Below are positions 1 through 34,826 of a DNA stretch of 34,826 nucleotides, piece after piece (position 1 is the stretch's first letter; every line of letters starts with the position of its first letter). The notes below the pieces were generated by a model. The model ran no database searches, was not told where the DNA came from, and saw only the letters and a list, made by a program, of their open reading frames with translations. Position numbers and translations under genes: made by a program. The stretch lies in the IMG/VR virus record IMGVR_UViG_2877251553_000002, one strand, 5' to 3'. This DNA is from a virus. Its lineage: Duplodnaviria > Heunggongvirae > Uroviricota > Caudoviricetes.

Positions 1-381
1 ATGCAGAAAAATGTGAATCCCGGCAGGCGAAAAGGCTGCCCTAATTATCCTCCCGAATTTAAACAGCAGCTCGTTGCTGCCTCCTGTGAACCCGGGATAT
101 CCATCTCAAAACTTGCTCTTGAAAATGGCATTAACGCCAATCTGTTGTTCAAATGGCGACAACAATGGCGCGAGGGAAAGCTGCTATTACCTTCTTCAGA
201 GAGCCCCCAGCTACTTCCTGTGACTCTCGATGCAGCTGCCGAACAGCCAGAATCGCTCGCAGAGGATCCGGAAACCCTCAGTATCAGCTGTGAGGTAACG
301 TTCCGGCACGGGACGCTCCGCTTCAATGGCAATGTCAGCGAAAAGCTCCTGACTCTGCTGATACAGGAACTGAAGCGATGA
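1..381 (+). CDS. IS66-family accessory protein TnpA (orf1), possibly 5' partial at window edge
   Basis: ORF MQKNVNPGRRKGC... identical to orf1 of copies 2 and 3. Confidence 0.8.
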   Translation: MQKNVNPGRRKGCPNYPPEFKQQLVAASCEPGISISKLALENGINANLLFKWRQQWREGKLLLPSSESPQLLPVTLDAAAEQPESLAEDPETLSISCEVTFRHGTLRFNGNVSEKLLTLLIQELKR

Positions 382-725
382 TCCCGTTACCTTCCGGGAC
401 CAAAATTTGGCTGGTTGCCGGTATCACCGATATGAGAAATGGCTTCAACGGCCTGGCGGCAAAGGTGCAGACGACGCTGAAAGACGATCCGATGTCAGGT
501 CACGTTTTTATCTTCCGTGGGCGTAATGGCAGTCAGGTAAAGCTCCTCTGGTCTACCGGCGATGGACTGTGTCTGCTGACCAAACGGCTGGAGCGCGGCC
601 GCTTCGCCTGGCCGTCAGCCCGGGATGGCAAAGTGTTCCTCACACCGGCACAGCTGGCGATGCTCCTTGAAGGTATCGACTGGCGGCAGCCTAAAAGACT
701 GCTTACGTCCCTGACTATGTTGTAA
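378..725 (+). CDS. IS66-family TnpB (orf2)
   Basis: 115-aa ORF MIPLPSGTKIWLVAGITDMRNGF..., ATGA overlap with orf1, conserved IS66 orf2 family. Confidence 0.85.
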   Translation: MIPLPSGTKIWLVAGITDMRNGFNGLAAKVQTTLKDDPMSGHVFIFRGRNGSQVKLLWSTGDGLCLLTKRLERGRFAWPSARDGKVFLTPAQLAMLLEGIDWRQPKRLLTSLTML

Positions 726-773
726 GCCTCTTTATCCTGGTCGACGCTGAATGAGCCTGGTAATATACCCGGT

Positions 774-2311
774 ATGAGCAGCTCACTTCCTGACGATATC
801 AATGCACTGAAACGTCTCCTTGCCGAACAGGAGGCGCTGAACCGTGCCCTGCTGGAAAAGCTGAACGAGCGTGAACGCGAAATAGACCATCTGCAGGCAC
901 AGCTGGATAAGCTGCGCCGGATGAACTTCGGCAGCCGCTCCGAAAAAGTCTCCCGTCGTATCGCACAGATGGAAGCTGACCTGAAGGCACTTCAGAAAGA
1001 AAGTGATACCCTTACCGGTCGGGTTGACGACCCGGCCGTGCAGCGCCCGCTGCGTCAAACCCGCACCCGCAAACCGTTCCCGAATCACTCCCCCGCGATG
1101 AAAAACGGCTGCTGCCGGCAGCGTCATGCTGCCCGGAATGTGGAGGCTCACTGAGCTATCCGGGTGAGGATGCCGCCGAACAGCTGGAGTTGATGCGCAG
1201 CGTCTTCCGGGTTATCCGGACTGTACGTGAAAAGCATGCCTGTACTCAGTGCGATGCCATCGTGCAGGCCCCCGCGCCTTCACGGCCCATCGAGCGGGGT
1301 ATCGCAGGACCGGGGCTGCTGGCCCGCGTGCTGATCTCAAAGTATGCAGAGCACACCCCGCTGTACCGCCAGTATGAAATGTACGGACGCCAGGGCGTGG
1401 AGCTGAGTCGTTCACTGCTGTCGGGCTGGGTGGATGCATGCTGCCGGCTACTGTCACCGCTGGAAGAAGCGCTTCAGGACTATGTGCTGACTGACGGTAA
1501 GCTCCATGCTGATGACACGCCTGTCCCGGTGCTGTTGCCAGGCAATAAGAAAACGAAGACCGGGCGGTTATGGACCTACGTTCGTGACGACCGTAACGCC
1601 GGGTCAACGCTGGCGCCGGCGGTGTGGTTCGCTTACAGCCCGGACAGAAAAGGCATCCATCCGCAGACCCATCTTGCGGGGTTCAGTGGTGTACTGCAGG
1701 CGGATGCATACGCCGGGTTCAACGAGCTGTACCGGGATGGCCGGATAACGGAAGCCGCCTGTTGGGCTCACGCCCGCCGTAAAATCCACGATGTGCACGT
1801 TCGCACCCCGTCAGCCCTGACGGAGGAAGCGCTGAAACGGATCGGCGAACTGTACGCCATCGAGGCAGAGATAAGGGGAATGACGGCGGAGCAGCGCCTT
1901 GCCGAACGTCAGTTGAAAACGAAACCGCTGCTGAAATCCCTGGAAAGCTGGCTGCGTGAAAAGATGAAAACCCTGTCGCGACACTCAGAACTGGCGAAAG
2001 CGTTCGCATACGCCCTGAACCAGTGGCCGGCGCTGACGTACTATGCAGATGATGGCTGGGCTGAGGCGGACAATAACATCGCTGAAAATGCGTTGCGGAT
2101 GGTCAGTCTGGGCCGCAAAAACTACCTGTTCTTCGGTTCGGATCATGGAGGAGAGCGGGGAGCGCTGCTGTACAGCCTGATCGGGACGTGCAAACTGAAC
2201 GGAGTGGAGCCAGAAAGCTACCTCCGCTATGTCCTTGACGTCATAGCCGACTGGCCGATAAACCGGGTCGGCGAACTGCTCCCCTGGCGCGTAGCACTGC
2301 CGACTGAATAA
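774..2311 (+). pseudogene. IS66-family transposase TnpC (orf3), frameshifted
   Basis: ORFs 774-1154 and 1190-2311 together match the intact 512-aa TnpC of copy 3; C-tract at 1079-1081 has 3 C versus 4 C in copy 3. Confidence 0.8.
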
Positions 2312-2344
2312 CACATCCCCGTCAATACGGTTCTTGCTGCACGC

Positions 2345-2701
2345 TTACGATTTTGCCAGCATGACTACCGGGGACAGGCGGCCCAGTGAGTCGGGACCAG
2401 CATTCCAGATACGACCGTTCCATTCAAACGTGAACGGCTTCGCCTCCTGTTCTGCGCGCCATGCTTCAATTTCCTGACGTCTGGCCTCTCTGGCCGCTTC
2501 CTGCATTTCTGGTGTCACAGTGAATGGGGCTATCTCACCCCATTTGCCGCTTTGCAGTTCCTGCCAGATTTGCTGACCCGTCGGAGCGACATCATCAGCG
2601 GTGGCTGTGTAGGGGACTGCCTGGTCCCTGTCGTCAAAAAAAACGTCACAGTCTACTGCGCCACTTTCGGTATAACGGGGATTAATGATTTTTTTAGTTT
2701 C
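2345..2701 (-). CDS. tail fibre assembly (Tfa)-like protein, 3' end probably truncated by IS
   Basis: In-frame GTG at 2701 preceded by GAGGAA; product has no recalled match but sits in Tfa position after a fibre gene; stop codon 2345-2347 lies inside the IS66 terminal repeat. Confidence 0.4.
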   Translation of the reverse strand, partial: ETKKIINPRYTESGAVDCDVFFDDRDQAVPYTATADDVAPTGQQIWQELQSGKWGEIAPFTVTPEMQEAAREARRQEIEAWRAEQEAKPFTFEWNGRIWNAGPDSLGRLSPVVMLAKS

Positions 2702-2714
2702 CACGGTGCATTCC

Positions 2715-3068
2715 TCACGATGTGCGAATAAAAAGCCCGGGCATTGCGCCAGAGACATGTGCATCCGGCACCCCGGACAGGGCGCAATATGACCCCGGTA
2801 ATGAATGCTCTGAACATCCCGTAATGAAAAATTGTGGGGATGCTATATACGTTCCGGTGGGAGTACTGGGCACTGAAATCCCCACCGGTCCCAGTCGTGA
2901 GCCTCTGTATGACTGCCCCCTGACAAGTCTGATGACTTTATCACCGTCAGCTTCTCCCTGGTACGCAGCAATAATCAGCCCGCCAATGTCAGGGGCTCCC
3001 CATCTGTTGCGGACAGAGCTCGCCACGATTCTGTAAATAATATCTTCTGTGGTTATATTTATTTTCAC
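2715..3068 (-). CDS. hypothetical protein downstream of Stf-like fibre gene
   Basis: 117-aa ORF with 4-bp overlap to the upstream fibre gene; no recognisable family. Confidence 0.3.
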   Translation of the reverse strand: MKINITTEDIIYRIVASSVRNRWGAPDIGGLIIAAYQGEADGDKVIRLVRGQSYRGSRLGPVGISVPSTPTGTYIASPQFFITGCSEHSLPGSYCALSGVPDAHVSGAMPGLFIRTS

Positions 3069-4123
3069 CCAGTCAGTCTGGATATGGGCCAGTAGCAGTA
3101 GCGGGTGTGATAAATGGGGCCGTTAATGCCGTAAAAAGTAAGGGATTTGGCTCTGTACCGCGGTTCTGTTGTCTCAGGGCGTGCATCAGTCCACCGGATG
3201 CTGAGCACCCCTTCAAACCGTGTGTCGGGTATGATGCCCAGGCGGCCAGCAACGGAATACTCACCTGGCAGCGCATTCCTTACCCAGGCCAGGAAATCAC
3301 TCTTAGTGTCAAAACGGATAACATCTTCAGGCAGAAAAGCACACCCAAAGCCGAATGCGCCGGGTATCGCCAGACGGCCTTTTGTCCGGTCGTAAATGTC
3401 GCTCTGTGCTTCCATCGTGGCCGCACTTTTCAGCCCCAGATTATCCCGGGACTTCTGTTGTGCCTTTTCGCCTGCTGCTGCGATTTCTGACAGATGGTTA
3501 GCCATTTTCAGAGTGCCGGTAAGCGCAGCATCAATGTCATTTTTGGCCTGTTCTGCTGCGCGGGCATAACCTGCGGCATCCTGTGCGCTCTGTCCGGCTG
3601 CGGCTGCATTTGCTCCTGTGCTTGTCACATCTTCCGCAGTGGCCTTTCTGTCCTCAGCTGTGACGGTTGCATCCTGTCTGGCATTCTCCGCAAAACGTTG
3701 TGCATCATCACGGGCCGTTGCGGCTGCCGCCACATCCTGCGCCGTCTGCTGTGCGTTTCCGGCTGCGGCCCCGGCGCTCTGCTGCGCCTGCACCACCATT
3801 TCCTCAAAGCGTTTGACGACATCCGGTTTCAGGTCGCCCTCATCAGGAGCAATCAGAAAGTCATTCAGCGTGCCGGGCTTTGAGTCCTCATATACAGCAA
3901 TGTCGCCAACGTTGTACTCGTTGTGCCAGCCCGGTTTCAGATACACACCATATTTTCCAGTCCGCGCATGGAAACAGTATTCACCATCGTTTCCTGTCAT
4001 CACATCAGCAACAGTGTGCATCACCACTTCCGGGGTGTTTACCCGGGATTTCAGAATAATATGGTATCCGGACATGGGGATACCTGCGCCATCAGTCAGC
4101 GCACCTGATATCACTACAGACAT
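3065..4123 (-). CDS. lambdoid side tail fibre (Stf)-like protein, short form
   Basis: N-terminus with DIAVYEDSKPGTLNDFL motif resembling the prophage side-tail-fibre N-terminal domain, followed by Ala/Gln-rich low-complexity region; much shorter than typical Stf. Confidence 0.6.
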   Translation of the reverse strand: MSVVISGALTDGAGIPMSGYHIILKSRVNTPEVVMHTVADVMTGNDGEYCFHARTGKYGVYLKPGWHNEYNVGDIAVYEDSKPGTLNDFLIAPDEGDLKPDVVKRFEEMVVQAQQSAGAAAGNAQQTAQDVAAAATARDDAQRFAENARQDATVTAEDRKATAEDVTSTGANAAAAGQSAQDAAGYARAAEQAKNDIDAALTGTLKMANHLSEIAAAGEKAQQKSRDNLGLKSAATMEAQSDIYDRTKGRLAIPGAFGFGCAFLPEDVIRFDTKSDFLAWVRNALPGEYSVAGRLGIIPDTRFEGVLSIRWTDARPETTEPRYRAKSLTFYGINGPIYHTRYCYWPISRLTG

Positions 4124-4475
4124 AGTTTTTCTCGCGATAAATTAAATCAGGAAGAAATTTCCGGAGAGGCGGGCCATTCAATGGCGTTGTATGAGGTTTT
4201 ATCAGTGATGACACTGAAATCCATCGCCTGCAGCGATTTCGCGTAAATGCGGTACGCTTTCAGTTTTTCCCGGTCTTCGTCGCTGATTAGCCCCAGCAGC
4301 AGGTCTTCTTCCCATTCCCCTGTCCGGGCACTGACCTGAGCCAGAAGGGCATCACGCTCATCTTCCGCTTTGAGTCTGTAGTCAAAGACAAATTCATCAT
4401 TGCGGTAAAACCAGTAACCCGGCGCGGTAATGCGGCGGTTGGCGGTAATATCAGGAACTTGGTAATGACTCCAAC

Positions 4476-4979
4476 TTACTGATAGTGTTTTATGTTCAGA
4501 TAATGCCCGATGACCTTGTCATGCAGCTCCACCGATTTTGAGAACGACAGTGACTTCCGTCCCAGCCTTGCCAGATGTTGTCTCAGATTCAGATTATGTC
4601 GCTCAATGCGCTGAGTGTAACGCTTGCTGATAACGTGCAGCTTTCCCTTCAGGCGTGATTCATACAGCGGCCAGCCATCCGTCATCCATACCACGACCTC
4701 AAAGGCCGACAGCAGGCTCAGAAGACGCTCCAGTGTGGCCAGAGTGCGTTCACCGAAGACGTGCGCCACAACCGTCCTCCGTATCCTGTCATACGCGTAA
4801 AACAGCCAGCGCTGACGTGATTTAGCACCGACGTAGCCCCACTGTTCGTCCATTTCAGCGCAGACAATCACATCACTGCCCGGTTGTATGCGCGAGGTTA
4901 CCGACTGCGGCCTGAGTTTTTTAAGTGACGTAAAACCGTGTTGAGGCCAACGCCCATAATGCGTGCACTGGCGCGACAT
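4476..4979 (-). CDS. insB: IS1 InsB
   Basis: 167-aa [19 protein letters not shown]... characteristic of IS1. Confidence 0.85.
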
Positions 4980-5173
4980 CCGACGCCATTCATGGCCATA
5001 TCAATGATTTTCTGGTGCGTACCGGGCTGAGAGGCGGTGTAAGTGAACTGTAGTTGCCATGTTTTACGGCAATGAGAGCAGAGATAGCGCTGATGTCCGG
5101 CAGTGCTTTTGCCGTTACGCACCACGCCTTCAGTAGCGGAGCAGGAAGGACATCTGATGGAAATGGAAGCCAC
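4898..5173 (-). CDS. insA: IS1 InsA
   Basis: 91-aa [26 protein letters not shown]... characteristic of IS1. Confidence 0.85.
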
Positions 5174-5471
5174 GCAAGCACCTTAAAATCACCATCATAC
5201 ACTAAATCAGTAAGTTGGCAGCATTACCCAGGAACTTCAATAACACTGGCGTTACGGGGTTCAATGCCTGTCACATCCTTACCGACCCACACCACGCGAC
5301 CGTCTCCGGTGTAAGTTATTTTAATTGTGTCGCTGGCGAAATTCTTCAGCTCTTCATACCAGTTTTTTCCGTCTTCCGAAAAAAGCCAGGTGACATCATA
5401 TTGTTTTGTCAGCTGATATTGTTCCACGGTTTTCGGATTGCCCGCAGTAATATTTTTTAAATGCAACATTG

Positions 5472-6856
5472 TTAAACACTCGCCACGTTATACCAGGTGC
5501 CATTAATCAGTTTCTGAAGCGGGCGGTAATACACGCCGTTGACGTTATCCGCTGAGTCACGGCCGGTATCCGATATCGCTATCCCTGACAGCCCGTGTCC
5601 CGAAGGTGCGCGAAATCTCCACGAAACGGTGTTACTGCCGGGGCTGTAATACATTTCATGGCCATACCGTACATCCTGTACCCCCTCTGTTCGATATTTA
5701 TAGCGGGCATCGAAGTTTCCGTAATTTAACGGAATTACCTGTCCGTTTACGGCGAACGTGATGCTGTTATCTGTATTCCTCTGGCTGAAAAAATGCCAGC
5801 CTGAATCATCGCCAAGCTCTGCAACAACAGACCTGGATGGATTACCCCACAAATAAAACGCTGCATTTTTCGTGGAGTTGTTGGCGCTGGATAACGTGAA
5901 TTTTCTGGCAGTTCCGGCCTGAATATTCTTAAAAGCAATAGCCACTCCATTCTGAAAGCGGAATACACGCTGACTATTAGCATAAACATCCAGAATACCG
6001 TCTCCATTCTGTTTAAATCCGGTGTCATTATCACCAAGAACAATTGAATTCCCCCCAGGGCGTTCTGAACGCCGATACCCAGCGCACCATTGACCTGCGA
6101 ACCACCGCCAACAGACACTTTATGCGACATGGATATTTCACCCGTCCGCAAATTAATGGTGAACGGGCGCAGGGGACCAATATCGCCATTTTCCCCCTGA
6201 CCTTCACTGGTGGGAATAAGGTGCAGGCACTCTTCCGAACGACGAAAAATCAGGCCAAAAGCTTCGTTGAAAATCCTCAGCGCATTAACACCACGGATTT
6301 TCAGCTCTCCGGTTATTTTATCGCCTTCCCGATGAACATAGCGTTGATCTGACTGCTCTTTACTGTAAACCTGAAGATTATCCCGTGCCGTCCCTTTATT
6401 CTGAAGGTCTGACAGATTGTTCTTCTGCCGCAGGAATATCCTTTTCGGATCCTCAAGAAGATTTACCCAGCCCGCACTGTCGGAGCCTTCAGGATCGGTC
6501 AGGTTATCGTCTGTGGTATTCAGCCAGACCGCTGTTGTTGCGACTCCGGCGAGAATGGCTCCTTTTGCATATCCACCAATGGCCCCCGCAAAACCGGCAT
6601 TATACGTGTACAAACCGCCAGCTTGGGCGAACCGTATTGCTGCGGTAATATCGTACATCAGACCGTTAAAATCCTTGCCGTGTGGCGGTATACCTCCCGC
6701 TGAGACCGCTGTCATGGTCACCGGAGGAAAACCTGAATCATACGCAGCATTACCGCTCTCTCTGGTCTGCTGTGTCGCCTTGTCCGGGATACGGTTTTTA
6801 TCTCCGGTACTCGCAAAGGGGACCGCCAGCTGGCGGGGTTTATCACTGGCCTTCAT
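5472..6856 (-). pseudogene. tail fibre protein with P2 gpH-like C-terminal domain, frameshifted at a C6/G6 tract
   Basis: ORFs 5747-6856 and 5472-5945 overlap in different frames; C-terminal ORF ([11 protein letters not shown]...[11 protein letters not shown]...[11 protein letters not shown]) resembles the P2 gpH C-terminus; frames rejoin if the tract at 6058-6063 had one more base. Confidence 0.7.
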
Positions 6857-7259
6857 TACGGGACTCCTTTAAAACTACTGAAACATAAACACCCGGCGGG
6901 GACGGCAGTGCACCCGACGACTGGATAATCGCCAGTTCTGCCAACGAGAGCGCGGACTCAAAGATGTAACTCATCCTCAGCCCACCATTATTCAGAACAT
7001 AAGCCCGCCGTTTTTTTCCGAACATAAATCTCAGCATCCGGTTAATATCCGGAACGGAACAGTCAGTAATGTTCGACATGGCTTTCATCAGTATCAGCCG
7101 CCGGTATACAGCATCAGACAGGTCAACAGTCCGGGTATCCGATTTTCCGTTGTAAAACGGTGCCTGATTAGACTGGCCCCCTGAATCTCCAGACAACCAG
7201 TATCACTTAAATAAGTGATAGTCTTAATACTAGTTTTTAGACTAGTCATTGGAGTACAG

Positions 7260-7625
7260 ATGATTGATGTCTTAGGGCCGGAGAAACGCAGACGGCGTAC
7301 CACACAGGAAAAGATCGCAATTGTTCAGCAGAGCTTTGAACCGGGGATGACGGTCTCCCTAGTTGCCCGGCAACATGGTGTAGCAGCCAGCCAGTTATTT
7401 CTCTGGCGTAAGCAATACCAGGAAGGAAGTCTTACTGCTGTGGCCGCCGGAGAACAGGTTGTTCCTGCCTCTGAACTTGCTGCCGCCATGAAGCAGATTA
7501 AAGAACTCCAGCGCCTGCTCGGCAAGAAAACGATGGAAAATGAACTCCTCAAAGAAGCCGTTGAATATGGACGGGCAAAAAAGTGGATAGCGCACGCGCC
7601 CTTATTGCCCGGGGATGGGGAGTAA
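7260..7625 (+). CDS. insC: IS2 InsC (OrfA)
   Basis: [32 protein letters not shown]... characteristic of IS2. Confidence 0.85.
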
Positions 7626-8488
7626 GCTTAGTCAGCCGTTGTCTCCGGATGTCGCGTGCGCAGTTGCACGTCATTCTCAGACGAACCGATGACTGGATGG
7701 ATGGCCGCCGCAGTCGTCACACTGATGATACGGATGTGCTTCTCCGTATACACCATGTTATCGGAGAGCTGCCCACGTATGGTTATCGTCGGGTATGGGC
7801 GCTGCTTCGCAGACAGGCAGAACTTGATGGTATGCCTGCGATCAATGCCAAACGTGTTTACCGGATCATGCGCCAGAATGCGCTGTTGCTTGAGCGAAAA
7901 CCTGCTGTACCGCCATCGAAACGGGCACATACAGGCAGAGTGGCCGTGAAAGAAAGCAATCAGCGATGGTGCTCTGACGGGTTCGAGTTCTGCTGTGATA
8001 ACGGAGAGAGACTGCGTGTCACGTTCGCGCTGGACTGCTGTGATCGTGAGGCACTGCACTGGGCGGTGACTACCGGCGGCTTCAACAGTGAAACAGTACA
8101 GGACGTCATGCTGGGAGCGGTGGAACGCCGCTTCGGCAACGATCTTCCGTCGTCTCCAGTGGAGTGGCTGACGGATAATGGTTCATGCTACCGGGCTAAT
8201 GAAACACGCCAGTTCGCCCGGATGTTGGGACTTGAACCGAAGAACACGGCGGTGCGGAGTCCGGAGAGTAACGGAATAGCAGAGAGCTTCGTGAAAACGA
8301 TAAAGCGTGACTACATCAGTATCATGCCCAAACCAGACGGGTTAACGGCAGCAAAGAACCTTGCAGAGGCGTTCGAGCATTATAACGAATGGCATCCGCA
8401 TAGTGCGCTGGGTTATCGCTCGCCACGGGAATATCTGCGGCAGCGGGCTTGTAATGGGTTAAGTGATAACAGATGTCTGGAAATATAG
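7583..8488 (+). CDS. insD: IS2 InsD (OrfB transposase)
   Basis: 301-aa [33 protein letters not shown]... characteristic of IS2. Confidence 0.85.
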
Positions 8489-8784
8489 GGGCAAATCCAC
8501 TGATTAAACGGACAGGGATCATCCATTACCGGGGTGTCCATCCTGGACTCGCTGAAGCCCAGGTAATTAAAATCGTCCTTTACCGTCAGCCGGCGACTGA
8601 CACCCACAATCTTTCCCCAGACATCAAGACCATACTTTTCTGCGGTATCGATGTTCCAGATAAGACCATAAAAATCACTGATAAAACTGTCGGGGGAAAG
8701 CGCTGCGTTAAAGCTGTTAATGAGGGCATTGAGTCGGGGCTGGCAGCATACTGCGCAAGCACAGTGGCAGCCACATTCTGCACG

Positions 8785-10022
8785 TTATGCCTCCTGGAGT
8801 TTCACACTGATATCCGACACATCCAGAACCGGAATCTCATCTATCCCGAAAGTGACAGCCGTTGTCCATGACGAACCGTCACGGCTCACAGTAAGGCCCA
8901 GAATATCAATATGTTCCGGATCGGTTTTGTAAATGCCGGCATAGTAGCGCCCGGCAGAGACAACAGAGGCAACCCTTGCCCGCAGACCACCATCTGTACC
9001 ATTAAATGCGTCCAGCACGGATTGCTGTACCTGTCGGGTAATATCTGAAGGCAGGTAGTCACTTTTTTTCAGCGTCACACTGACATGCAGACTGACGGGT
9101 TTGAGTGTCTGCCAGCTGATTACGTATTCAGGATACGGCGGATCGTACTCCTTATCTGCAACAGTGAACGTTGTGTTGCCATTCATATCAATACCCGGCG
9201 GAGCCTTACGCCAGATGGCCGCCGCGATATCTGCCGGGCTGCCGCCGTACACGCCAACATAAAGCGAACCGGGTGTTAATGGATACTGACTGACTCCGGC
9301 TTTTTGTTCTGTTTTTTTCGGATTATGGGGGACGTAAACATCCACCACGTTTTCTACCGTGGAGAGTATTTCACCCCGGATGGCTTCCAGAATATTCCGG
9401 GCATTACGGGCAACTGAATTACGTCGGCGGTTTTCAAAGTCCGCACGGGTTTCCTCATCGCTGCCCGGCACACCGGCACGGGCGTTAGTGACACCTGACC
9501 AGCCAGGTATTGCCTTATAAATTTTATTCAGCGTCCCCACAGGACAGCCGACGGGGCCGGTGGACAAATTCAGAAATACCGCATCAACCTGCCCTGATGC
9601 GCCGATAGTGACGTCTGACTGACATACTTATAACCGGCCTCATCCTGCCCCATACTGCCCGCCGGGATCAGCGTGCCAACCAGCCCGGTACAGGTCGCTG
9701 TTACTGTCGTACCTGTGGCCCCACGGCGCTCCAGGAAATAAATCCTGCCTATTGCATCCTGAAAGCGACCACTGGAAAAGTCAGGGTTGATCTGGTTAAC
9801 GATATACAGCAACTGATCGTTTTTATCCGCAATAATGGCGCTTTCGCTGGATGCAAGTTGTCCCTGCGGACTGCTCAGACTGGTACTCATGGCCCCGCCC
9901 AGCGCCGCCGAAAAATCAGCAAGCCTGCCGCTCAGAATATCCGCTTCATCCGGCACATTCAGCCCGCTATCCGAAATCTGTACAGCGGGCACTGCGGTAG
10001 AAAAAGATTTATTTTCACTCAT
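8785..10022 (-). pseudogene. baseplate J-like protein, frameshifted
   Basis: ORFs 9570-10022 and 8785-9567 are adjacent in different frames and together resemble a ~410-aa baseplate J-family protein; frame change near a GTCAGTCAG repeat around 9600. Confidence 0.6.
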
Positions 10023-10375
10023 AGCAGTACCGTAAAAATGTCATTATTGGTATCTGTAATACGCAGCACACCTGTTACTGTCCGGGTTTGATCAGCTGTG
10101 ACCTGGCAGACAGCGGCGCTCACGGTCGGCAGTTTAAGTGCTTCCTGTTGCAGAGTGGCATTCACCAGTTGTGTGCCGGGCCAGTGTCCGAGGATGCGTG
10201 GCCAGTAAGGTATGCCAGCCGTTGAGTCGTACCAGCACTCCCCCAGAAAAGTACTGCACGCACACGCCACATCCTGAGCTACCGCATGGGGATTATCAGT
10301 AATGGCAAGATTTCCGGTATCATCAAGCAGGATATCCCATGTCCCGGTGTCAAGAAGAAGTGATCGTGACTGCAT
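10019..10375 (-). CDS. small baseplate protein (gpW position)
   Basis: 118-aa ORF between V-like and J-like genes; assignment by position only. Confidence 0.4.
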   Translation of the reverse strand: MQSRSLLLDTGTWDILLDDTGNLAITDNPHAVAQDVACACSTFLGECWYDSTAGIPYWPRILGHWPGTQLVNATLQQEALKLPTVSAAVCQVTADQTRTVTGVLRITDTNNDIFTVLL

Positions 10376-11063
10376 GTTTTCTCCTGTTTACCGGGATCCC
10401 TGCGTGGTTGAGCCGCCGGACTCAACGCCGCCGTGAACGTGGTTTCCAAAATCAATACCCCGATGTTCGAACCGCCGGAAAGCCTGGACTGCCCGGTAAC
10501 GTCAAGCCCCTTACTGACGGCGGTATCGCCGTTCAGCGCAATTTGTGGTGAGTTAACGGTGAAGCTTTTCGGCGCATTAATCACCCCCTCAGGCGCGGAT
10601 ATCTCCACTTTCCAGGGAGATACAATCCGTATCTGGTTGTCATCAAATACCACAAACTGGACGGGATCACCGTTGAGCACGCCACCCAGCCAGATGGCAT
10701 CAGCATAATTATGGGTACGCTTTGATCCCGGCATCGCAGCCTGACGCGTGGCTTTTACCGCACTGATATCCCGATCGCAGATGGCAAGAAAACCGATATC
10801 CCCCACATGTGGCGGGATAATCACCGCATTACCGCCCCCTGTAGTCGCCATACGGGAATGTTATAAATCACCTCATGTTCAACCGGGGAACCGTCTGCTG
10901 CAACGCCCATTACCATCGGTCGGGCCTCAATAAATCCCTCTTCCACGGCTACCACCCGTCCCAGAGTGATAAACGCATGACGTCCGAGAAACTGCCGCAG
11001 CATAAAGTCCTGTGCATTGATTTCGCTGTTCACGTCTGTCGGGTTACTGAGTGGTTGTGCCAT
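10279..11063 (-). pseudogene. baseplate assembly protein V-like (spike), frameshifted
   Basis: ORFs 10821-11063 and 10279-10851 overlap in different frames; position and size fit gpV/Mu gp45-type proteins. Confidence 0.45.
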
Positions 11064-11913
11064 TTTCTTCAGCCCTCATCATGGTACAGTTGGAACTCCA
11101 CGGACCGCCCACGGTTCGCGAAGTAATGGTGTGTATCACCCCTGTGATCGTATAATCGCCCGTCATATCAGGCAGTGACGATTCCAGATGCGCTGGCCTG
11201 CCAGTAAAGAGATCGGGGCAGAATATCGTGGTGGCGCTGAGTCCGGTCATGGTGTAAACCGGATAGCCAGTCAGTCCGTGATCCGGCGAAATCAGTACCG
11301 GCGGAATATTCCGGTTCTGCCCTTTCGGCCAGATGGTGACTTTCTCCACATTCCCCAGATCAATGTTAATATCGGCGGCTGAAGCGACATCCAGCATTTG
11401 TTGTACAACATTACCGGAAAAATGCGGGTCAGACAGACTGCGGCTGACCCCCTGGTTTTCAAATCCAAGCCCGACAGTTGACGCCAGCGCACGGATAATA
11501 TCTGCAACCGCAACATCGCCCTTTGCGCTGAAATCTGCCGCCGGCTGATTACGCAGATTAAAATGAATCTGTCCTGTCAGAATGAGCGGAATATCCGGCG
11601 CCTGGTTGTAGTCGGCGTATGCATCAGTAATATCACCTTCAAAAATAAGCCGCCCGTCGGCCCACAGCCGCATTTTATTTGCGGTACTCTGCTCCTGTCG
11701 CCACACACCGCGCCAGCTTAAATTCGTCATATGCGCCGGTGACATTCCCCAGATATACAGCGTGATTTGTGTACCAGCCACCCCTCCATATACGGCAATA
11801 CTGGCAAAACAGCTTGCGTCGGTAATGGTCAGCATATTGCCCTGGCCATTACCAAACGTTCGTCCGTCTGAAAGAGTGAACTCCACCGTTATTTTACGTT
11901 GTCTGTAGCTCAT
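11044..11913 (-). CDS. phage baseplate/tail protein (hub-like position)
   Basis: 289-aa ORF in tail-gene operon with overlapping start/stop to neighbours. Confidence 0.4.
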
Positions 11914-12212
11914 ATCAGTTCCTCAGGTAACAGCCAGTAGAGCCGGTACCGGGATCCGAGCCCCCGCCAGTCAGGGTCACTATTCCCCTCCGTGTCGGTA
12001 AAAAACAGATCCCCCTGAAACGGCAGGTATCCGTACCGGACAATCCGGTTATTATTCAGACACAGCACGCCATACAGGCACGGTTCACCATTAACAATGA
12101 TATCGATATACATCCCCGTAGTACGCTGATTCAGGCGAATGGTGCAGACCTGAGCGCCCAGTGTCACCGTAAACTGCTGGGCTTTAACGGGAGATAAAAC
12201 AATTTCCAGCAT
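11910..12212 (-). CDS. phage tail protein, hypothetical
   Basis: 100-aa ORF translationally coupled within tail operon. Confidence 0.35.
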
Positions 12213-12922
12213 CAGGTGATCCCCCTGTTCGTGGCGCTTCGTCTGTCAGCGTCTGACGGTTGTGTCTCCGACGCCGTAACTGGCTGCGTTTTAACCGATG
12301 CGGCCCCTTTTGCTTTATCGTTGTCCGTGGGAGACGACTTATCCGTACTTCCCACTGACACCTCTCCTGTATTCATTACGGTCTGAAATACCGCAGTAAC
12401 CGTCAGTAAGGTCGGACCATTATTACTTCGCATTCGGTAGTCATATTTCACAAGGTCGCAGGATGTCCATGTCTTGTCCGGCGTCTCAATATCGTAGAGT
12501 CCTGCCGTGGTACGCATCCTTTCAAGCGTTTCCAGCACATTCGTCCGCGAGGTGGTGGAAAAATTTGTCAGGTTCGGGACGGATCCGGAAAAGGCCGTCC
12601 ACCCCTCTACAGTGAAAGTCACATGCAGTTCCGGCGATCTCTGGATTTTATTAAAGGTGGTATAAGCCCCCTGCTCCACGGGGACGGTGGAAACAGAAGC
12701 CTCCGCGCCCACCTCAACGACAACAAAAGAATCCGGGGAGAAAGGTTTGCCACCCTTCTGATGGGCACCTGCCGGATCATTCCGTGCGTAATAAATACCG
12801 AATGACGGTGCCAGTACACTATTAATGAGTCCCAGGACACAGCCGCCACGAACTGCACTCAGTACGTTACTTTCACTGAGCGAAAAGTTATTCAGGGAAA
12901 TATTATCGAAAGAAAAACTCAT
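12212..12922 (-). CDS. phage tail protein, hypothetical
   Basis: 236-aa ORF immediately downstream of the tape measure gene. Confidence 0.35.
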
Positions 12923-14938
12923 CCTGTTACCCCGCTGGAATAAACCGACACAAGCGCCGAATTCGTGATACGCCGACGTGCGTCATCGGTAATACCCTTC
13001 ACATTGTCCGACGTTGTGGTGACATTCAGTGTCCCGATATGCGTGGTTTCCGTTACGGTGGACTGCGATACAGGCGCAGGATGGAGCGACCGTATGGCCA
13101 TTGCCGCACCCGGATAAGGCAGGTTCGCCAGCACCCGCGGAATATAGTTGCGGGTCTCCTCCGGAGCAGCAGCCAGTCCCTTACGCTGAACATTTCCCTC
13201 TCCACAGTTATATGCCGCCAGAGCCTTAGCCAGATCGCCATGAAAAAAACGTATCAGGCCACCAAGTTTTCTCGCGGCGGCATCAGCGGCTTTTTCGGGA
13301 TCAAAGGCATCGTTCCCCCTCAGACCAAATTCACTGGCCGTCTTCGGCATGAACTGAAACAGTCCCATCGCACCAGCAGGTGAGACGGCAAACTGATTAC
13401 CACGGGATTCGGTGATCGCAACGCTGCGCAGCAGTCCGGGCGGCAGGTTATATTTTTCCTCCAGTTGAGACAGTTTCGGTTGCAGCCAGCCTAACAGGGC
13501 TTCCCCGGTCTTCGTCGGTCGCTGGCGGTTTTGCATGGCATTACCGAGTTTTTCCTGCGTCGCACGCATACCCTGTAGCCAGGATTCACCGAAGGCTGCT
13601 TCCCTCCCGGTTGCCTGAGAAGCCTGAGTATCCAGCATGCCCTGCTGCCATACTGTGGGTGATTGTGCCCGGGTGATGTTGCCAGGCTTTTCTCCGGCAT
13701 CCAGTTTTGTCTGATACGTCTCCATCTCTTTCTTATTGAAAAAGAAAGTCCCGTCTGAAGCCCAGAAAAAACCATGTGAATCCAGCCAGTCCTTATTTTC
13801 CCTGCCAACAATGGATGTCAGTAATCCGTCAACAACCGGGTAAAGCGCCGTTATCGCAAAAAGAAGGCCTCCGGGGCCACTGAGGGCTTTTGTCAGCCCC
13901 CGCACCCATGACGCCACTTTCAGCCCGATCAGCGTAATAATGACATTCTGCCAGCCCCCAGTTCTCCGGCAGCCTTATTCGCTAGGGAGGCCACTGACTC
14001 AACGTCATTCAGAAATGTGGTGATAAACCTGTTCACTTCCTCCGGATGTTGCTGCATCCAGTCACCGAGTGTCTCCAGCCAGTGGCTGAGCTTCAGCGCG
14101 TACGGCATCAACGCGGTGCTAATCGTCATCCCGATGCCGGACCAGGTCTGATCGAGCTCAACAAGCTCTTTTCGTAGCTTACGGGCCAGCGCTGTACGCC
14201 CCGGCGTAACCTGCGAACGGGAAGTAAATTCGTCCACATCTTTCAGCGCATGACCGGAGCCAAGAAACTGCTGTCCGGCATAACTGAAGCCCAGCGCGTT
14301 GCCGTAGGCAGTTTGTTCGGACTTTGTCAGTCGCGGAAAAATAACCGCCAGCTTGCGCATGATGGCTTCAGTGCTGTCAGTATTTAAATCAACACTAATG
14401 CCCGCCCTGGCTGCAACCTGAAACAAATCCTGTAACACAGGATCAAAGGACCTTCCGGCTCTGAAGGCCGCTTTTGCATTTGCAAGCCGGGAAAATGCCC
14501 CAGACATTTCCCCTTCATCAACATTATTTGCCCGCGCAGCCCGTAACCATCCGTCCAGATTTCTGGCCTTCATGCCAAAAGCATCGGATTCCACGGACAG
14601 ACGGTTCAGATCACGGGCAAAACCTGTTACCAGGTTCTTCAGCCCCCCAGCGTCAGACTGACACCCGCAAGAGCCAGAATCTCGCTACGGATTCCTGAAA
14701 AAAAACGGGACGCCCGTTTCCCGGCATCTTCCATTCGACGGGCCGTTTTATCAGCATCTTTTCCGGTTTTTTCCAGTGATTCACTGGTTTTCTTCTGTCC
14801 CTGACTGAATGTGTCAGCGACACCTTCCATCACCGTCGTGAGCCGGTTAAGGGCAGCATGTACTGCCTGTTCCCCGGCAGTAAAGTCCCTGTCATCAATC
14901 CCGAGGGACAGAACAAGCTCATCAAGTACCTGCGCCAT
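12919..14938 (-). pseudogene. tail tape measure protein with C-terminal lytic transglycosylase (SLT) domain, split over three frames
   Basis: ORFs 14639-14938, 13929-14594 and 12919-13917 are consecutive in different frames; the last has an SLT-like signature (ESRGNQFAVSPAGAMGLFQFMP...AAYNCGEGNV). Confidence 0.55.
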
Positions 14939-15549: not shown

Positions 15550-15887
15550 CAGTTAAAAACCTCCGGAGTAATGGTTTCCCACTCAATAACCGCCTGCCCT
15601 GGCTGCAACGTACGAGCTGCATCAGGCAGCGCTTTCCATTGTTTGAGTACGCCATTCACGCAGGTATATTTACGGCCAATCGCCGGAAGCAGGACGACAG
15701 CGTTACAACGGAATACAGCCCGACTGGCCCGGATGTGGTTGACCAGGTATCAAAAATATCCCGGCTGGGGGAATCCGGCATGATATGAAACGTCTGGATA
15801 ATGTTGCTGTACACAAATCCCGCGGACAGTTTGGTAATGCTGCCAACTTACTGATTTAGTGTATGATGGTGATTTTAAGGTGCTTGC

Positions 15888-16163
15888 GTGGCTTCCATTT
15901 CCATCAGATGTCCTTCCTGCTCCGCTACTGAAGGCGTGGTGCGTAACGGCAAAAGCACTGCCGGACATCAGCGCTATCTCTGCTCTCATTGCCGTAAAAC
16001 ATGGCAACTACAGTTCACTTACACCGCCTCTCAGCCCGGTACGCACCAGAAAATCATTGATATGGCCATGAATGGCGTCGGATGTCGCGCCAGTGCACGC
16101 ATTATGGGCGTTGACCTCAACACGGTTTTCCGTCACTTAAAAAACTCAGGCCGCAGTCGGTAA
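15888..16163 (+). CDS. insA: IS1 InsA
   Basis: 91-aa ORF, two substitutions relative to the copy at 4898-5173. Confidence 0.85.
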
Positions 16164-16189
16164 CCTCGCGCATACAACCGGGCAGTGAT

Positions 16190-16585
16190 GTGATTGTCTG
16201 CGCTGAAATGGACGAACAGTGGGGCTACGTCGGTGCTAAATCACGTCAGCGCTGGCTGTTTTACGCGTATGACAGGATACGGAGGACGGTTGTGGCGCAC
16301 GTCTTCGGTGAACGCACTCTGGCCACACTGGAGCGTCTTCTGAGCCTGCTGTCGGCCTTTGAGGTCGTGGTATGGATGACGGATGGCTGGCCGCTGTATG
16401 AATCACGCCTGAAGGGAAAGCTGCACGTTATCAGCAAGCGTTACACTCAGCGCATTGAGCGACATAATCTGAATCTGAGACAACATCTGGCAAGGCTGGG
16501 ACGGAAGTCACTGTCGTTCTCAAAATCGGTGGAGCTGCATGACAAGGTCATCGGGCATTATCTGAACATAAAACACTATCAGTAA
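16190..16585 (+). CDS. insB: IS1 InsB (N-terminal region carries a TGG to TGA change relative to copy 1)
   Basis: 131-aa ORF matching the C-terminal 131 aa of InsB; the upstream in-frame segment has a stop at codon 11. Confidence 0.7.
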
Positions 16586-17949
16586 GTTGGAGTCATTACC
16601 GACAGTTTACCGTCAATACCGCGGGCAGTTTCCGCCAGTACCAGTGGATCGGTGCCATAAACGTTATCTGTTGCAAATCCCTGAAGTCGTACGCCGGAGG
16701 GATACAGATTATTCACTGTCAGCGTGATAATGGCATCCGCCGCAGTGATGGTGTTGTTGTTACCCGACATTTACTGGACCTCCGTGGATGCAATAACAAG
16801 TTTCTGGATACTACCGCCGTCACAGTACCAGAGCGTACAGGACGGACTGCTACGGGTTGCCCGCAAAGAGGGAAGCATATCGCCGATATACAGGTAATAG
16901 CCGGTGGCAAACAACGTTGAAGAAACATCTGCCTCCACAACATTGTTAATCTGTTTCTTCTGCGCCTCCGTCAGTGTCACCCCTTCACGGATCCCTCCCC
17001 AGCGTTTGTACTGCTGGATAACGTCACTCATTGACGCTGCAACCAGCGCCCGCCCTTCATTGTTGTAGGGGACCGTCTGGTTTGACTTGAATAATGCGAT
17101 CACCGCCCCTGCAAACTGGCATTCAGCCAGATTTGCCCGCAGAAACTGTCCAGCCATTTAAAATCACCGGTAATAGTGCCATCCGCCCAGTAATCTTCCA
17201 CCACACTGTTTTCCGCATATTTTCCGTAGAAATTGTAACCTGCGGCGATCAGCGCATCATAATCGCTGCCACTGGTAACATCAGCGGCCAGCCCCTCATA
17301 CTCGCGGAACTTGAATGATACACGCCCCTCTGGTCGGATAAAATCAAGGCACGCTGCATACCCCAGTACCGCTGCAGCCCGGTTACCATCAGTCGCGAAA
17401 ACAGGTACAACAGAGCTGTAGTTATTGACAGCAATTATCTGGTAAGCGATGTGTTCAGTACTGCCTTTTACTCTGGCGTTGCCGCTGGTTGTCCATGCCA
17501 CATAAAAGTAACGCTTGCCCTGCCCGTTTGCCCATGCAGAAAACGCCAGGTGTTGCTCGTCAGTGACCTCAGATACCGTGGAAAAACCCGCCCATTGCTG
17601 GGAAGCGGCCTTAATGGCTGCCATTGTGTCAGGGACATCAGATACAGGCGCGCCCCGGGATATCACCGCACCGGTGTTACTGGTCATCTTCAGGAGTTCT
17701 GCTGCCGATCCACTGCCGAACGTTATCGTGGTACTCCCGGGTTTCGCCCCGGCGACAGTAATGACAAAAGCATTCTGTGTGGTATCGAATACCACTGTAG
17801 CCACTGCTGCGGTCAGCGCTGTCTGTAGTGCCGTTGCAGCAGCGGCGAAGCTGGCGACACCGTTAAAATTCACTTCAATGCTGACGCTTTTCCCGTTAAT
17901 ACTCAGCATCAGCGTAAGCGTGCAGCAAGAACCGTATTGACGGGATGTG

Positions 17950-19487
17950 TTATTCAGTCGGCAGTGCTACGCGCCAGGGGAGCAGTTCGCCGACCCGGTT
18001 TATCGGCCAGTCGGCTATGACGTCAAGTACATAGCGGAGGTAGCTTTCTGGCTCCACTCCGTTCAGTTTGCACGTCCCGATCAGGCTGTACAGCAGCGCT
18101 CCCCGCTCTCCTCCATGATCCGAACCGAAGAACAGGTAGTTTTTGCGGCCCAGACTGACCATCCGCAACGCATTTTCAGCGATGTTATTGTCCGCCTCAG
18201 CCCAGCCATCATCTGCATAGTACGTCAGCGCCGGCCACTGGTTCAGGGCGTATGCGAACGCTTTCGCCAGTTCTGAGTGTCGCGACAGGGTTTTCATCTT
18301 TTCACGCAGCCAGCTTTCCAGGGATTTCAGCAGCGGTTTCGTTTTCAACTGACGTTCGGCAAGGCGCTGCTCCGCCGTCATTCCCCTTATCTCTGCCTCG
18401 ATGGCGTACAGTTCGCCGATCCGTTTCAGCGCTTCCTCCGTCAGGGCTGACGGGGTGCGAACGTGCACATCGTGGATTTTACGGCGGGCGTGAGCCCAAC
18501 AGGCGGCTTCCGTTATCCGGCCATCCCGGTACAGCTCGTTGAACCCGGCGTATGCATCCGCCTGCAGTACACCACTGAACCCCGCAAGATGGGTCTGCGG
18601 ATGGATGCCTTTTCTGTCCGGGCTGTAAGCGAACCACACCGCCGGCGCCAGCGTTGACCCGGCGTTACGGTCGTCACGAACGTAGGTCCATAACCGCCCG
18701 GTCTTCGTTTTCTTATTGCCTGGCAACAGCACCGGGACAGGCGTGTCATCGCATGGAGCTTACCGTCAGTCAGCACATAGTCCTGAAGCGCTTCTTCCAG
18801 CGGTGACAGTAGCCGGCAGCATGCATCCACCCAGCCCGACAGCAGTGAACGACTCAGCTCCACGCCCTGGCGGCCGTACATTTCAGACTGGCGGTACAGC
18901 GGGGTGTGCTCTGCATACTTTGAGATCAGCACGCGGGCCAGCAGCCCCGGTCCTGCGATACCCCGCTCGATGGGCCGTGAAGGCGCGGGGGCCTGCACGA
19001 TGGCATTGCACTGAGTACAGGCATGCTTTTCACGTACAGTCCGGATAACCCGGAAGACGCTGCGCATCAACTCCAGCTGTTCGGCGGCATCCTCACCCGG
19101 ATAGCTCAGTGAGCCTCCACATTCCGGGCAGCATGACGCTGCCGGCAGCAGCCGTTTTTCATCGCGGGGGAGTGATTCGGGGAACGGTTTGCGGGTGCGG
19201 GTTTGACGCAGCGGGCGCTGCACGGCCGGGTCGTCAACCCGACCGGTAAGGGTATCACTTTCTTTCTGAAGTGCCTTCAGGTCAGCTTCCATCTGTGCGA
19301 TACGACGGGAGACTTTTTCGGAGCGGCTGCCGAAGTTCATCCGGCGCAGCTTATCCAGCTGTGCCTGCAGATGGTCTATTTCGCGTTCACGCTCGTTCAG
19401 CTTTTCCAGCAGGGCACGGTTCAGCGCCTCCTGTTCGGCAAGGAGACGTTTCAGTGCATTGATATCGTCAGGAAGTGAGCTGCTCAT
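17950..19487 (-). pseudogene. IS66-family transposase TnpC, frameshifted
   Basis: ORFs 18513-19487 and 17950-18732 match the intact copy-3 TnpC; 1-bp deletion near 18750 (GTCATCGCATGG versus GTCATCAGCATGG). Confidence 0.8.
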
Positions 19488-19535
19488 ACCGGGTATATTA
19501 CCAGGCTCATTCAGCGTCGACCAGGATAAAGAGGC

Positions 19536-19883
19536 TTACAACATAGTCAGGGACGTAAGCAGTCTTTTAGGCTGCCGCCAGTCGATACCTTCAAGGAGCA
19601 TCGCCAGCTGTGCCGGTGTGAGGAACACTTTGCCATCCCGGGCTGACGGCCAGGCGAAGCGGCCGCGCTCCAGCCGTTTGGTCAGCAGACACAGTCCATC
19701 GCCGGTAGACCAGAGGAGCTTTACCTGACTGCCATTACGCCCACGGAAGATAAAAACGTGACCTGACATCGGAGCGTCTTTCAGCGTCGTCTGCACCTTT
19801 GCCGCCAGGCCGTTGAAGCCATTTCTCATATCGGTGATACCGGCAACCAGCCAAATTTTGGTCCCGGAAGGTAACGGGATCAT
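19536..19883 (-). CDS. IS66-family TnpB (orf2)
   Basis: 115-aa ORF, one substitution relative to the other copies. Confidence 0.85.
   Translation of the reverse strand: MIPLPSGTKIWLVAGITDMRNGFNGLAAKVQTTLKDAPMSGHVFIFRGRNGSQVKLLWSTGDGLCLLTKRLERGRFAWPSARDGKVFLTPAQLAMLLEGIDWRQPKRLLTSLTML

Positions 19884-24585: not shown

Positions 24586-25886
<1,301 letters not shown>

Positions 25887-33042: not shown

Positions 33043-34826
<1,784 letters not shown>

Follow-up and report, generated by a model that had tools for sequence, protein, structure and literature searches.

The window analysed here is a stretch of 34,826 nucleotides from a Caudoviricetes record (IMGVR_UViG_2877251553_000002), the first 14,123 bases of which are 100% identical to CP026825.1, a sister record of S. 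dysenteriae 14 ATCC 49346. The region from 2345 to 6856 is the right end of a Shigella prophage with IS elements throughout, and it carries four tail genes on the minus strand, namely a baseplate fibre (fibre 1), a Tfa gene, a second fibre (fibre 2) and a DUF4376 gene. The first-pass annotation had recorded their common direction correctly, within a range (2345-5469) that holds the last three genes and leaves out fibre 1. All four genes are inactivated. The damage by IS elements reported earlier applies to Tfa, which is interrupted by IS1, and to the DUF4376 gene, which is cut by ISEc8, whereas fibre 1 was hit by a 1-bp frameshift and fibre 2 by a 4-bp deletion.

Fibre 1 (6856 to 5472, minus strand) has lost one G from a G7 run at approximately 6057 and is thereby split into 369 and 157 aa; it is intact in S. 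dysenteriae 14 ATCC 49346 (461 aa), and the 1-bp loss could be a homopolymer sequencing error. Beside it lies the C-terminal part of a DUF2612 (baseplate wedge) gene (6843..7168, minus strand; Pfam PF11041 on the called gene, with E 2.7e-65 for the intact homologue), which is split by a 1331-bp IS2 (7169..8499, plus strand) with the 5-bp target duplication CTGAT. The Tfa gene (5469 to 4147, including IS1) starts 2 nt past the fibre 1 stop codon. Its 768-bp IS1 (4461..5228, minus strand) is a simple insertion with a 9-bp target duplication, AAGTTCCTG, at 4452-4460 and 5229-5237, and the insertion point falls on the boundary between two Tfa domains (codon ~80). The N-terminal part (5229..5469, minus strand), which corresponds to the fibre-tip-binding domain, shares 59-61% identity with P2 G, Mu U and phiP27 L55 over their first 80 aa, and the C-terminal part (4147..4460, minus strand), a conserved helical domain, is 85% identical to that of L55. 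After IS1 and one duplication copy were taken out, the rejoined 181-aa protein belonged to Pfam PF02413 Caudo_TAP (90.2 bits versus a cut-off of 22.1, E 1.7e-25), in line with the earlier description of a Tfa gene broken by IS1.

Fibre 2 (2715..4123, minus strand) is one gene in two frames, from 4123 to 3065 (352 aa) and from 3068 to 2715 (117 aa). A 4-bp deletion near 3072 (one CTGG gone from GACTGACTGGCTGG), which we mapped against a 99%-identical O121 copy, splits the gene; in EIEC strain RMDEC465 it is intact and encodes 470 aa, and the two parts in the window share 92% and 89% identity with the matching parts of that protein. The 117-aa ORF that had been listed separately is therefore the C-terminal third of fibre 2, cut off by the deletion. 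The lambdoid Stf-type N-terminus already attributed to this gene was recovered by Pfam, with residues 1-131, counted from the start at 4123, belonging to phage_tail_N (PF08400; 225.8 bits versus a cut-off of 26.6, E 1.9e-67).

The DUF4376 gene (2345..2764, minus strand) is cut at 2349 by ISEc8 (IS66 family; 1..2348, plus strand), an element with tnpA, tnpB and tnpC ORFs whose matching E. coli sequences are annotated as ISEc8. The element is itself cut by the window's left end, and its right terminus, ...CGCTTAC, finishes at 2348. The stop codon, TAA at 2345-2347, lies wholly within the ISEc8 terminus GTAAGCG, as the first-pass annotation had seen. The gene keeps 139 of 207 annotated codons, and over these 139 aa its product shares 91% identity with the 207-aa protein of EIEC; comparison with phiP27 L57 makes a GTG at 2706, behind GAGGA, the likelier true start than the annotated-type one. 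Against Pfam PF14301 (DUF4376) the truncated copy scored 23.1 bits, short of the cut-off of 25, with 59.1 bits (E 6.8e-16) for the intact homologue from EIEC and 66.4 bits for phiP27 L57. The ancestral gene clearly belonged to this family; for its subgroup, a chaperone function is putative. The gene had been taken for a second Tfa-like gene, a description that did not hold, as neither the window copy nor the intact homologue matched Caudo_TAP in Pfam and the protein showed no detectable similarity to the neighbouring Tfa (BLASTP E 16). PHROG family 11571 was matched by the N-terminal part of Tfa and the C-terminal part of the DUF4376 protein, an overlap that hints at a shared modular design and not at homology. 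A PDB sequence search with the DUF4376 protein returned only noise, and NCBIfam gave no match for any of the four cassette proteins.

The two flanks of ISEc8 differ in the parent genome (GCAAAATC versus AGTTAAGT); ISEc8 therefore marks a rearrangement or deletion junction, which adjoins zitB-pnuC-nadA. This rearrangement would have removed whatever stood downstream of the DUF4376 gene, and neither the missing 3' end of that gene nor an ipaH gene was present elsewhere in the window. An exact scan of a contig collection (one genome per species) found no DUF4376/ISEc8 junction. We considered whether the IS junction was shared with the O121 copy, which is also cut by an IS66-family element, and rejected this on alignment, which revealed a different element at a different position. 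For an IS600-type transposase ORF in the right half of the window, a look-up gave no record.

Conservation and mosaic structure of the cassette

When the whole region was compared with E. coli genomes by megablast, IS matches drowned out the rest, and IS-free sub-queries were used instead. At least part of the block was matched in 198 of 5426 complete E. coli genomes, and partial matches among the matches listed span the Tfa/fibre-2 junction. The complete genomes of phiP27, Rac-SA53 and vB_Apl-pPE4 carry these four genes with order and direction unchanged, as do prophages of EIEC and commensal E. coli, and the four-gene order was found also in E. coli NRZ103545 and SE11. The Tfa/fibre-2 junction is 95% identical at the DNA level in six loci, including the 23 nt that separate the Tfa stop from the fibre 2 start (4124..4146, minus strand). 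This spacer is constant in length and almost constant in sequence across all six, and reading it by eye revealed no hairpin resembling a terminator. Because the same four genes stand intact in complete phage genomes, the region from 2345 to 6856 is an ordinary, already known kind of four-gene tail cassette, neither switchable nor newly joined.

The Stx2e-converting phage phiP27 carries, as L54-L57 at the prophage end beside attR, a fibre, a Caudo_TAP chaperone, a phage_tail_N fibre and a DUF4376 gene with the same 23-nt spacer. Identity to the window is 85% for the C-terminal half of Tfa, 81% for the Stf N-domain and 76% for DUF4376, but only 50% for the fibre-1 tip and 29% for the distal part of fibre 2. 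The phiP27 genes are intact, and its baseplate gene set is a different one with no DUF2612 match; its annotation places no accessory gene immediately behind L57, where a small hypothetical ORF, L58, reaches attR. The LT-II prophage Rac-SA53 (tail1-tail4, beside attB) and vB_Apl-pPE4 (gp67-gp70, beside the integrase gene) have the same cassette 3' of baseplate J; they differ from the window in that all genes are intact, fibre 2 has 1061 and 667 aa, respectively, and baseplate J is only 23% identical. The closest relatives are the ipaH-linked prophage ends of EIEC RMDEC465, where the cassette is followed by ipaH3, next to pphA, in a prophage with contractile-tail genes and by ipaHd in a lambdoid prophage. 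The baseplate genes and fibre-1 N-terminus of the window are 99% identical to these ends and the cassette 93-94%; the EIEC copies have intact fibre 2 and DUF4376 genes with ipaH downstream, whereas in the window DUF4376 is cut by ISEc8 and ipaH is lacking. Of five related E. coli loci that were examined, three have ipaH or another accessory gene 3' of the cassette, and in the two EIEC prophages this gene is ipaH.

Fibre 1 is a three-part mosaic, and the alignments place the true mosaic boundary inside this gene. Its first ~130 aa are of the DUF2612 lineage and resemble fibres of Pantoea and Klebsiella phages with a DUF2612-type baseplate, the middle is similar to phiP27 L54, and the last ~190 aa resemble P2 gpH and lambdoid Stf. 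The earlier label of a P2 gpH-type fibre is accurate for these last ~190 aa, with only gpH residues 480-669 matching (60% identity, E 3e-58); the N-terminus of gpH, which binds the baseplate, found no match in fibre 1. The domain search that the first-pass annotation had proposed returned phage_tail_N for the N-terminus of fibre 2; that of fibre 1 is of the DUF2612-lineage type by its match to phage fibres. Homology to the lambdoid EIEC prophage starts at ~6055-6086 and runs unbroken across Tfa, fibre 2 and DUF4376 up to ISEc8. The first-pass annotation was right that host-range modules have been exchanged, and this exchange was horizontal. The cassette probably moves between unrelated tail types via recombination in the fibre-1 shaft. 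Within RMDEC465, the contractile-tail and lambdoid prophages share a block that is 99.97% identical from the fibre shaft into the 3' half of ipaH, which points to recent exchange between prophages in one cell.

Predicted roles of the two fibres and their partners

[quoted passage not shown] Fibre 1 would be bound to the baseplate by its N-terminus. Tfa would serve as its chaperone, its N-terminal domain binding the tip of the fibre while trimerisation is driven by the conserved C-terminal one; this two-domain design (PMC9608196) fits the co-variation of the N-terminal half of Tfa with the fibre-1 tip. Fibre 2 is a complete second fibre, and its N-terminal domain, of the Stf type, would build a ring or collar on the virion. 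Its residues 1-92 match the collar domain of Ur-lambda Stf (PDB 9E7M/9MGH; phmmer E 2e-15; 41-45% identity), which forms a collar or ring around the tail (PMC12617516), and residues 1-188 match the collar spike protein of XM1 over its N-terminal 179 residues (E 5e-6), a myophage in which the homologous N-domain docks the spike at the neck (PMC10457771). Lambda has one side fibre, a Caudo_TAP chaperone and a non-contractile tail, whereas in the window the Stf-type fibre comes second, is partnered by DUF4376 and belongs to a prophage with contractile-tail baseplate genes. Among phages with baseplate or sheath genes, intact fibre 2 ORFs range from 470 to 1061 aa, with N-domains 81-82% identical and distal parts 27-29% identical; a conserved docking end with a very variable distal part is what one would look for in a functional receptor-binding protein. 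The two fibres were most likely made together and mounted at different virion sites, and a working phage would then display two receptor specificities at once, without inversion switching.

The DUF4376 protein may be the chaperone of fibre 2. One member of the family, gp27 of Alteromonas phage V22, has been shown experimentally to be a fibre chaperone: its gene lies directly behind the fibre gene gp26, V22 being a myophage whose baseplate includes a DUF2612 protein, and gp27 is required for the fibre to be active. The V22 fibre has no Stf-type N-domain, the relationship is distant, and the likeness to the window is at the level of the family. The DUF4376 proteins are 66-93% identical from residue ~46 on, whereas their partner fibre tips are only 34-39% identical. 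A chaperone specific for the tip would be expected to vary along with it, and this mismatch counts against our main reading.

We weighed whether fibre 2 and DUF4376 ever worked on the virion in DUF2612-type prophages, or instead came along with ipaH as passengers through recombination in the fibre-1 shaft. The closest relatives of the baseplate, in Pantoea phage PA-1 and Klebsiella phage ST15-VIM1phi2.1, come with a fibre and a tailspike and no Stf-type fibre; the cassette was therefore imported into the DUF2612 lineage, and fibre 2 might be a passenger. The DUF2612 baseplate type is present in only 9 of 5426 E. coli genomes, and all nine carry the fibre 2/DUF4376 block at ≥80% coverage; the near-identity of the block in the two RMDEC465 prophages also speaks for recent transfer. 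Against this, at least three complete phage genomes that have baseplate or sheath genes carry the cassette undamaged, the distal parts of their fibre 2 have diversified, and the homologous N-domain docks the collar spike on the neck of XM1. We regard a passenger origin as rather unlikely. It seems improbable, further, that the stretch from the fibre-1 shaft through DUF4376 is a self-contained, portable double receptor-binding unit used on at least three to four unrelated tail architectures (lambdoid, phiP27-type, Rac-SA53-type and DUF2612-type). The most conserved stretch of the cassette comprises the Tfa C-domain and the Stf N-domain, and the Tfa C-domains are 58-88% identical among cassette carriers versus 23-27% in P2, Mu and lambda, which have no downstream fibre. 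These identities allow a functional contact, and the conservation could reflect, for example, a branched fibre with fibre 2 docked on a cassette product; alternatively, the stretch may be a recombination hinge, and physical linkage explains the Tfa C-domain identities equally well.

Prophage-junction and invertible-segment models

Two further origins of the co-directional sets were weighed, the junction between two prophage remnants that the first-pass annotation had offered and the fossil of an invertible segment. That separate remnants, each with a fibre and chaperone pair, were set side by side would be in keeping with a region full of IS elements, with the rearrangement junction at the left-end ISEc8 and with the different kinds of N-terminus on the two fibres. 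We nevertheless judge this very improbable, since the Tfa/fibre-2 junction is free of IS, highly conserved and identically spaced in the six loci, complete phage genomes included, and homology to other loci crosses it without a break.

Two fibre specificities are likewise carried by the Mu G, P1 C and e14 P segments, and a former switch would be in keeping with the kinship of fibre 1 and Tfa to P2 H/G and to Mu S/U (S C-terminus 43%, U N-terminal half 59%), Mu being a phage that uses one. The second set of Mu lies next to gin in inverted orientation and has no fibre N-terminus of its own, whereas nothing is inverted in the window and fibre 2 is complete. A tblastn search with Mu Gin, which recovered Mu itself as a positive control (E 1e-131), found no serine invertase in the window (best E 1.5), in the 7 kb left flank of the parent genome or in eight related loci (best E 0.26), which agrees with the earlier remark that none was visible. 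Between 2349 and 7214 the only strong inverted repeat is formed by the IS1 ends, and a gix-like 26-mer pattern had no match with up to three mismatches. Adjacent invertase and crossover sites had been named earlier as the finding that would point to a standard inverted set; both were absent from this region and from the relatives checked, and the invertase also from the left flank. Given that fibre 2 has its own start codon and N-terminal docking domain and that both sets point in the same direction in every locus, a Gin/Pin/Cin-type switch fixed in one orientation after invertase loss is scarcely credible; the logic of inversion does not apply, because fibre 2, far from being an alternative C-terminus, is whole and brings a virion-docking domain of its own. 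Both models were rejected on the conserved junction and the absence of every switch part.

With all four genes inactivated and the prophage riddled with IS elements, the cassette is of little importance for the S. dysenteriae genome itself. Its wider meaning lies in a recurrent two-fibre arrangement, which in two EIEC prophages stands directly upstream of ipaH effector genes. Co-directional fibre and chaperone pairs at a prophage end should not be taken as broken invertible switches or as prophage junctions. Where the Stf-type second fibre sits on contractile-tailed temperate phages is a question for intact phages such as phiP27, and not for the S. dysenteriae remnant.

Layout and lesions of the fibre cassette

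The relevant genes all lie on the minus strand and read from high to low coordinates, so the first-pass annotation was right to describe co-directional tandem fibre sets. First comes a DUF2612 baseplate-wedge gene interrupted by IS2 (7169-8499; 5-bp duplication CTGAT), then the baseplate fibre gene (fibre 1, 6856 to 5472) and the gene for its Caudo_TAP chaperone Tfa (5469 to 4147), which is split by IS1 (4461-5228; 9-bp duplication AAGTTCCTG at 4452-4460 and 5229-5237). After a 23-nt spacer come an Stf-type fibre gene (fibre 2, start at 4123) and a DUF4376 gene that ISEc8 truncates at 2349. The latter element ends at 2348, and the stop codon of the DUF4376 gene, TAA at 2345-2347, comes from the terminal GTAAGCG of the IS, as had been proposed. 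With IS1 and one copy of the duplication removed, Tfa has 181 aa and matches Pfam Caudo_TAP (E 1.7e-25); the IS1 site happens to coincide with the boundary between its two domains. Residues 1-131 of fibre 2 match Pfam phage_tail_N (E 1.9e-67).

Damage had been attributed to insertion sequences, which holds for Tfa (IS1) and the DUF4376 gene (ISEc8), but the two fibre genes carry small lesions instead. Fibre 1 is frameshifted: at ~6057 one G is missing from a G7 run that is complete in the Shigella dysenteriae 14 ATCC 49346 gene (intact, 461 aa), and this may be a homopolymer sequencing error. Compared with a 99%-identical O121 copy, fibre 2 lacks 4 bp near 3072, one CTGG of GACTGACTGGCTGG; this lesion is real, because four database contigs encode the resulting product of 352 aa. 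The 117-aa ORF (3068 to 2715), previously listed on its own, belongs to fibre 2 as its C-terminal third, split off by the 4-bp loss: the intact homologue in enteroinvasive E. coli (EIEC) is a single 470-aa protein, 92% identical to the 352-aa ORF and 89% to the 117-aa ORF. Nor is the last gene a second Tfa-like gene (BLASTP against Tfa, E 16); it encodes a DUF4376 protein, for which an intact homologue scores 59.1 bits and the shortened window copy 23.1 bits, under the profile cut-off of 25 bits.

The cassette in other genomes

The four genes recur in the same order and direction in phiP27 (L54-L57, adjoining attR), Rac-SA53 (tail1-tail4, adjoining attB) and vB_Apl-pPE4 (gp67-gp70, adjoining the integrase gene), and stand 3' of a baseplate J gene in E. 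coli NRZ103545. EIEC RMDEC465 carries two copies, one with ipaH3 and pphA after it, in a prophage that shares this baseplate type, and one in a lambdoid prophage with the order J-lom-Stf-Tfa-fibre 2-DUF4376-ipaHd. Only the downstream part (Tfa or a Tfa remnant, fibre 2 and DUF4376) is kept in an O121 Rac remnant beside sitABCD and in an E. coli SE11 lambdoid prophage, the fibre gene upstream being degraded in both. Across six of these loci, the 107 nt comprising the Tfa end, the 23-nt spacer and the fibre 2 start are 95% identical. In the phage collection, this junction occurs only in phiP27, pPE4 and Rac-SA53, all with baseplate or sheath genes, and the block is matched at least in part in 198 of 5426 complete E. 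coli genomes. It is an ordinary block of genes, of a kind already known, and is decayed here.

The suggested junction between two prophage remnants is rejected, given the four-gene order and direction shared with phiP27, Rac-SA53, pPE4 and E. coli prophages and the near-identical Tfa/fibre 2 boundary. A fossil invertible switch is likewise rejected, as the genes run in the same direction in all relatives checked, and the searches below yielded neither an invertase nor crossover sites. The earlier impression that no invertase is visible was confirmed by tblastn with Mu Gin, which gave at best E 1.5 in the window, no match in the 7 kb to its left and at best E 0.26 in eight related loci (positive control Mu itself, E 1e-131). 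Inverted repeats in 2349-7214 were unremarkable except for the pair of IS1 ends, and no match was found to a gix-like 26-mer.

Exchange of the cassette and decay of the prophage

Fibre 1 is a three-part mosaic of a DUF2612-lineage N-terminus, a middle and a tip. The N-terminal ~130 aa match the fibres of two phages, Pantoea PA-1 and Klebsiella ST15-VIM1phi2.1, which also carry the baseplate J and DUF2612 genes closest to those of this prophage; the middle is like phiP27 L54 and Rac-SA53 tail1 (81-90% identity), and the tip resembles P2 gpH and lambdoid Stf. A P2 gpH-type label fits the last ~190 aa alone (60% identity). Homology to the EIEC lambdoid prophage begins within fibre 1 (~6055-6086) and runs on via Tfa, fibre 2 and DUF4376 up to the IS. 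Because such boundaries fall inside fibre 1, the idea of host-range module exchange is upheld, the exchanged unit being the entire double cassette, not just fibre 2 with its DUF4376 partner. Within RMDEC465, the two prophages are 99.8-99.97% identical from fibre-1 codon ~177 as far as the 3' half of ipaH, which points to recent exchange or gene conversion between prophages of one cell, with the conserved C-terminal half of ipaH as its limit. The stretches compared are 6666-12659 of one locus (L001) and 7666-12221 of the other (L002); the tail types differ, yet each prophage has the same protein accessions for fibre 2 and for DUF4376. The first-pass account stands for part of its observations (genes, orientation, IS damage) and for module exchange, and falls for the junction, the fossil switch, the Tfa-like last gene and the separate 117-aa ORF.

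The first 14,123 bases of the window are 100% identical to CP026825.1, the window is 99.9% identical to CP026832.1 (S. dysenteriae 14 ATCC 49346), and the entire prophage is decayed. Since the left-end ISEc8 (window 1-2348; 11776-14216 in loci L006/L007) has unlike 8-bp flanks (GCAAAATC vs AGTTAAGT) and adjoins zitB-pnuC-nadA in the parent genome, it sits where a rearrangement or deletion took place and is no simple insertion. Neither the missing DUF4376 3' end nor any ipaH gene was found in the window.

Another ISEc8 copy (17914-20352), unlike the left-end one, has a clean 8-bp duplication, GCATCAGC, and a further IS1 lies at 15833-16600. Several other tail genes (region 9570-14594) look split into two ORFs, namely baseplate J (8785-9567 and 9570-10022), the spike gene (10279-10851) and an SLT/tape-measure-like gene (12919-13917 and 13929-14594). 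A lambda-Int-like tyrosine integrase lies in two halves of opposite orientation ~8 kb apart (25795-26238, minus strand; ~34255-34826, plus strand), each abutting an IS600/IS3-type copy (24586-25850, minus; 33007-~34250, plus); this looks like an inversion via recombination between the two inverted IS copies.

Conservation pattern and proposed function

Tfa proteins combine a variable N-domain for binding to the fibre tip with a helical, conserved C-domain for trimerisation (PMC9608196). Identities of the fibre-1 tip and the Tfa N-half co-vary (76/92, 74/91, 50/57 and 49/25%). For the Tfa C-domain, identity is 58-88% within the group of cassette carriers vs 23-27% in P2, Mu and lambda; linkage or a recombination hinge is the simple reading of this difference, and a functional contact an unlikely one. 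Conservation within the cassette (loci L002, L004, L005, L015 and L018) is highest in the Tfa C-domain, spacer and Stf N-domain, and the fibre tips to both sides vary.

DUF4376 proteins are 66-93% identical from ~residue 46 on, and the last 90 aa of their partners 34-39%; the fibre-2 tips, which these proteins would be expected to serve, are far less conserved than they are. Their genes are also matched in P-EibA, C, D and E (AF151091, AF151674-AF151676) and SerU-LTIIb (KU052038) prophage fragments, and in L018 a DUF4376 gene is followed by a gene annotated 'zygote formation protein zyg1' and then uspF. Together with ipaH in EIEC, this hints that the structural genes often end with DUF4376, ahead of accessory cargo at the end of the prophage.

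The Stf N-domain forms a 12-subunit tail collar with four trimeric side fibres in Ur-lambda (PMC12617516), and in the myophage XM1 the collar spike protein, present as six trimers, binds the neck through an N-terminal domain of ~100 residues (PMC10457771). Residues 1-188 of fibre 2 match the N-terminal 179 residues of the XM1 collar spike (E 5e-6). Because its N-domain is 81-82% conserved, its distal 200 aa only 27-29% identical and its ORF intact in every relative examined (470-1061 aa), fibre 2 shows the hallmarks of a receptor-binding protein that works and is diversifying. It is rather unlikely that in the DUF2612 baseplate lineage fibre 2 is a passenger that arrived with ipaH and, like DUF4376, never functioned on the virion, as might be argued from the absence of an Stf-type fibre in the nearest relatives of that lineage. 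Most probably, in a working phage fibre 2 would be made with fibre 1 from one late transcript, and the two, mounted at separate virion sites, would provide two specificities at once.
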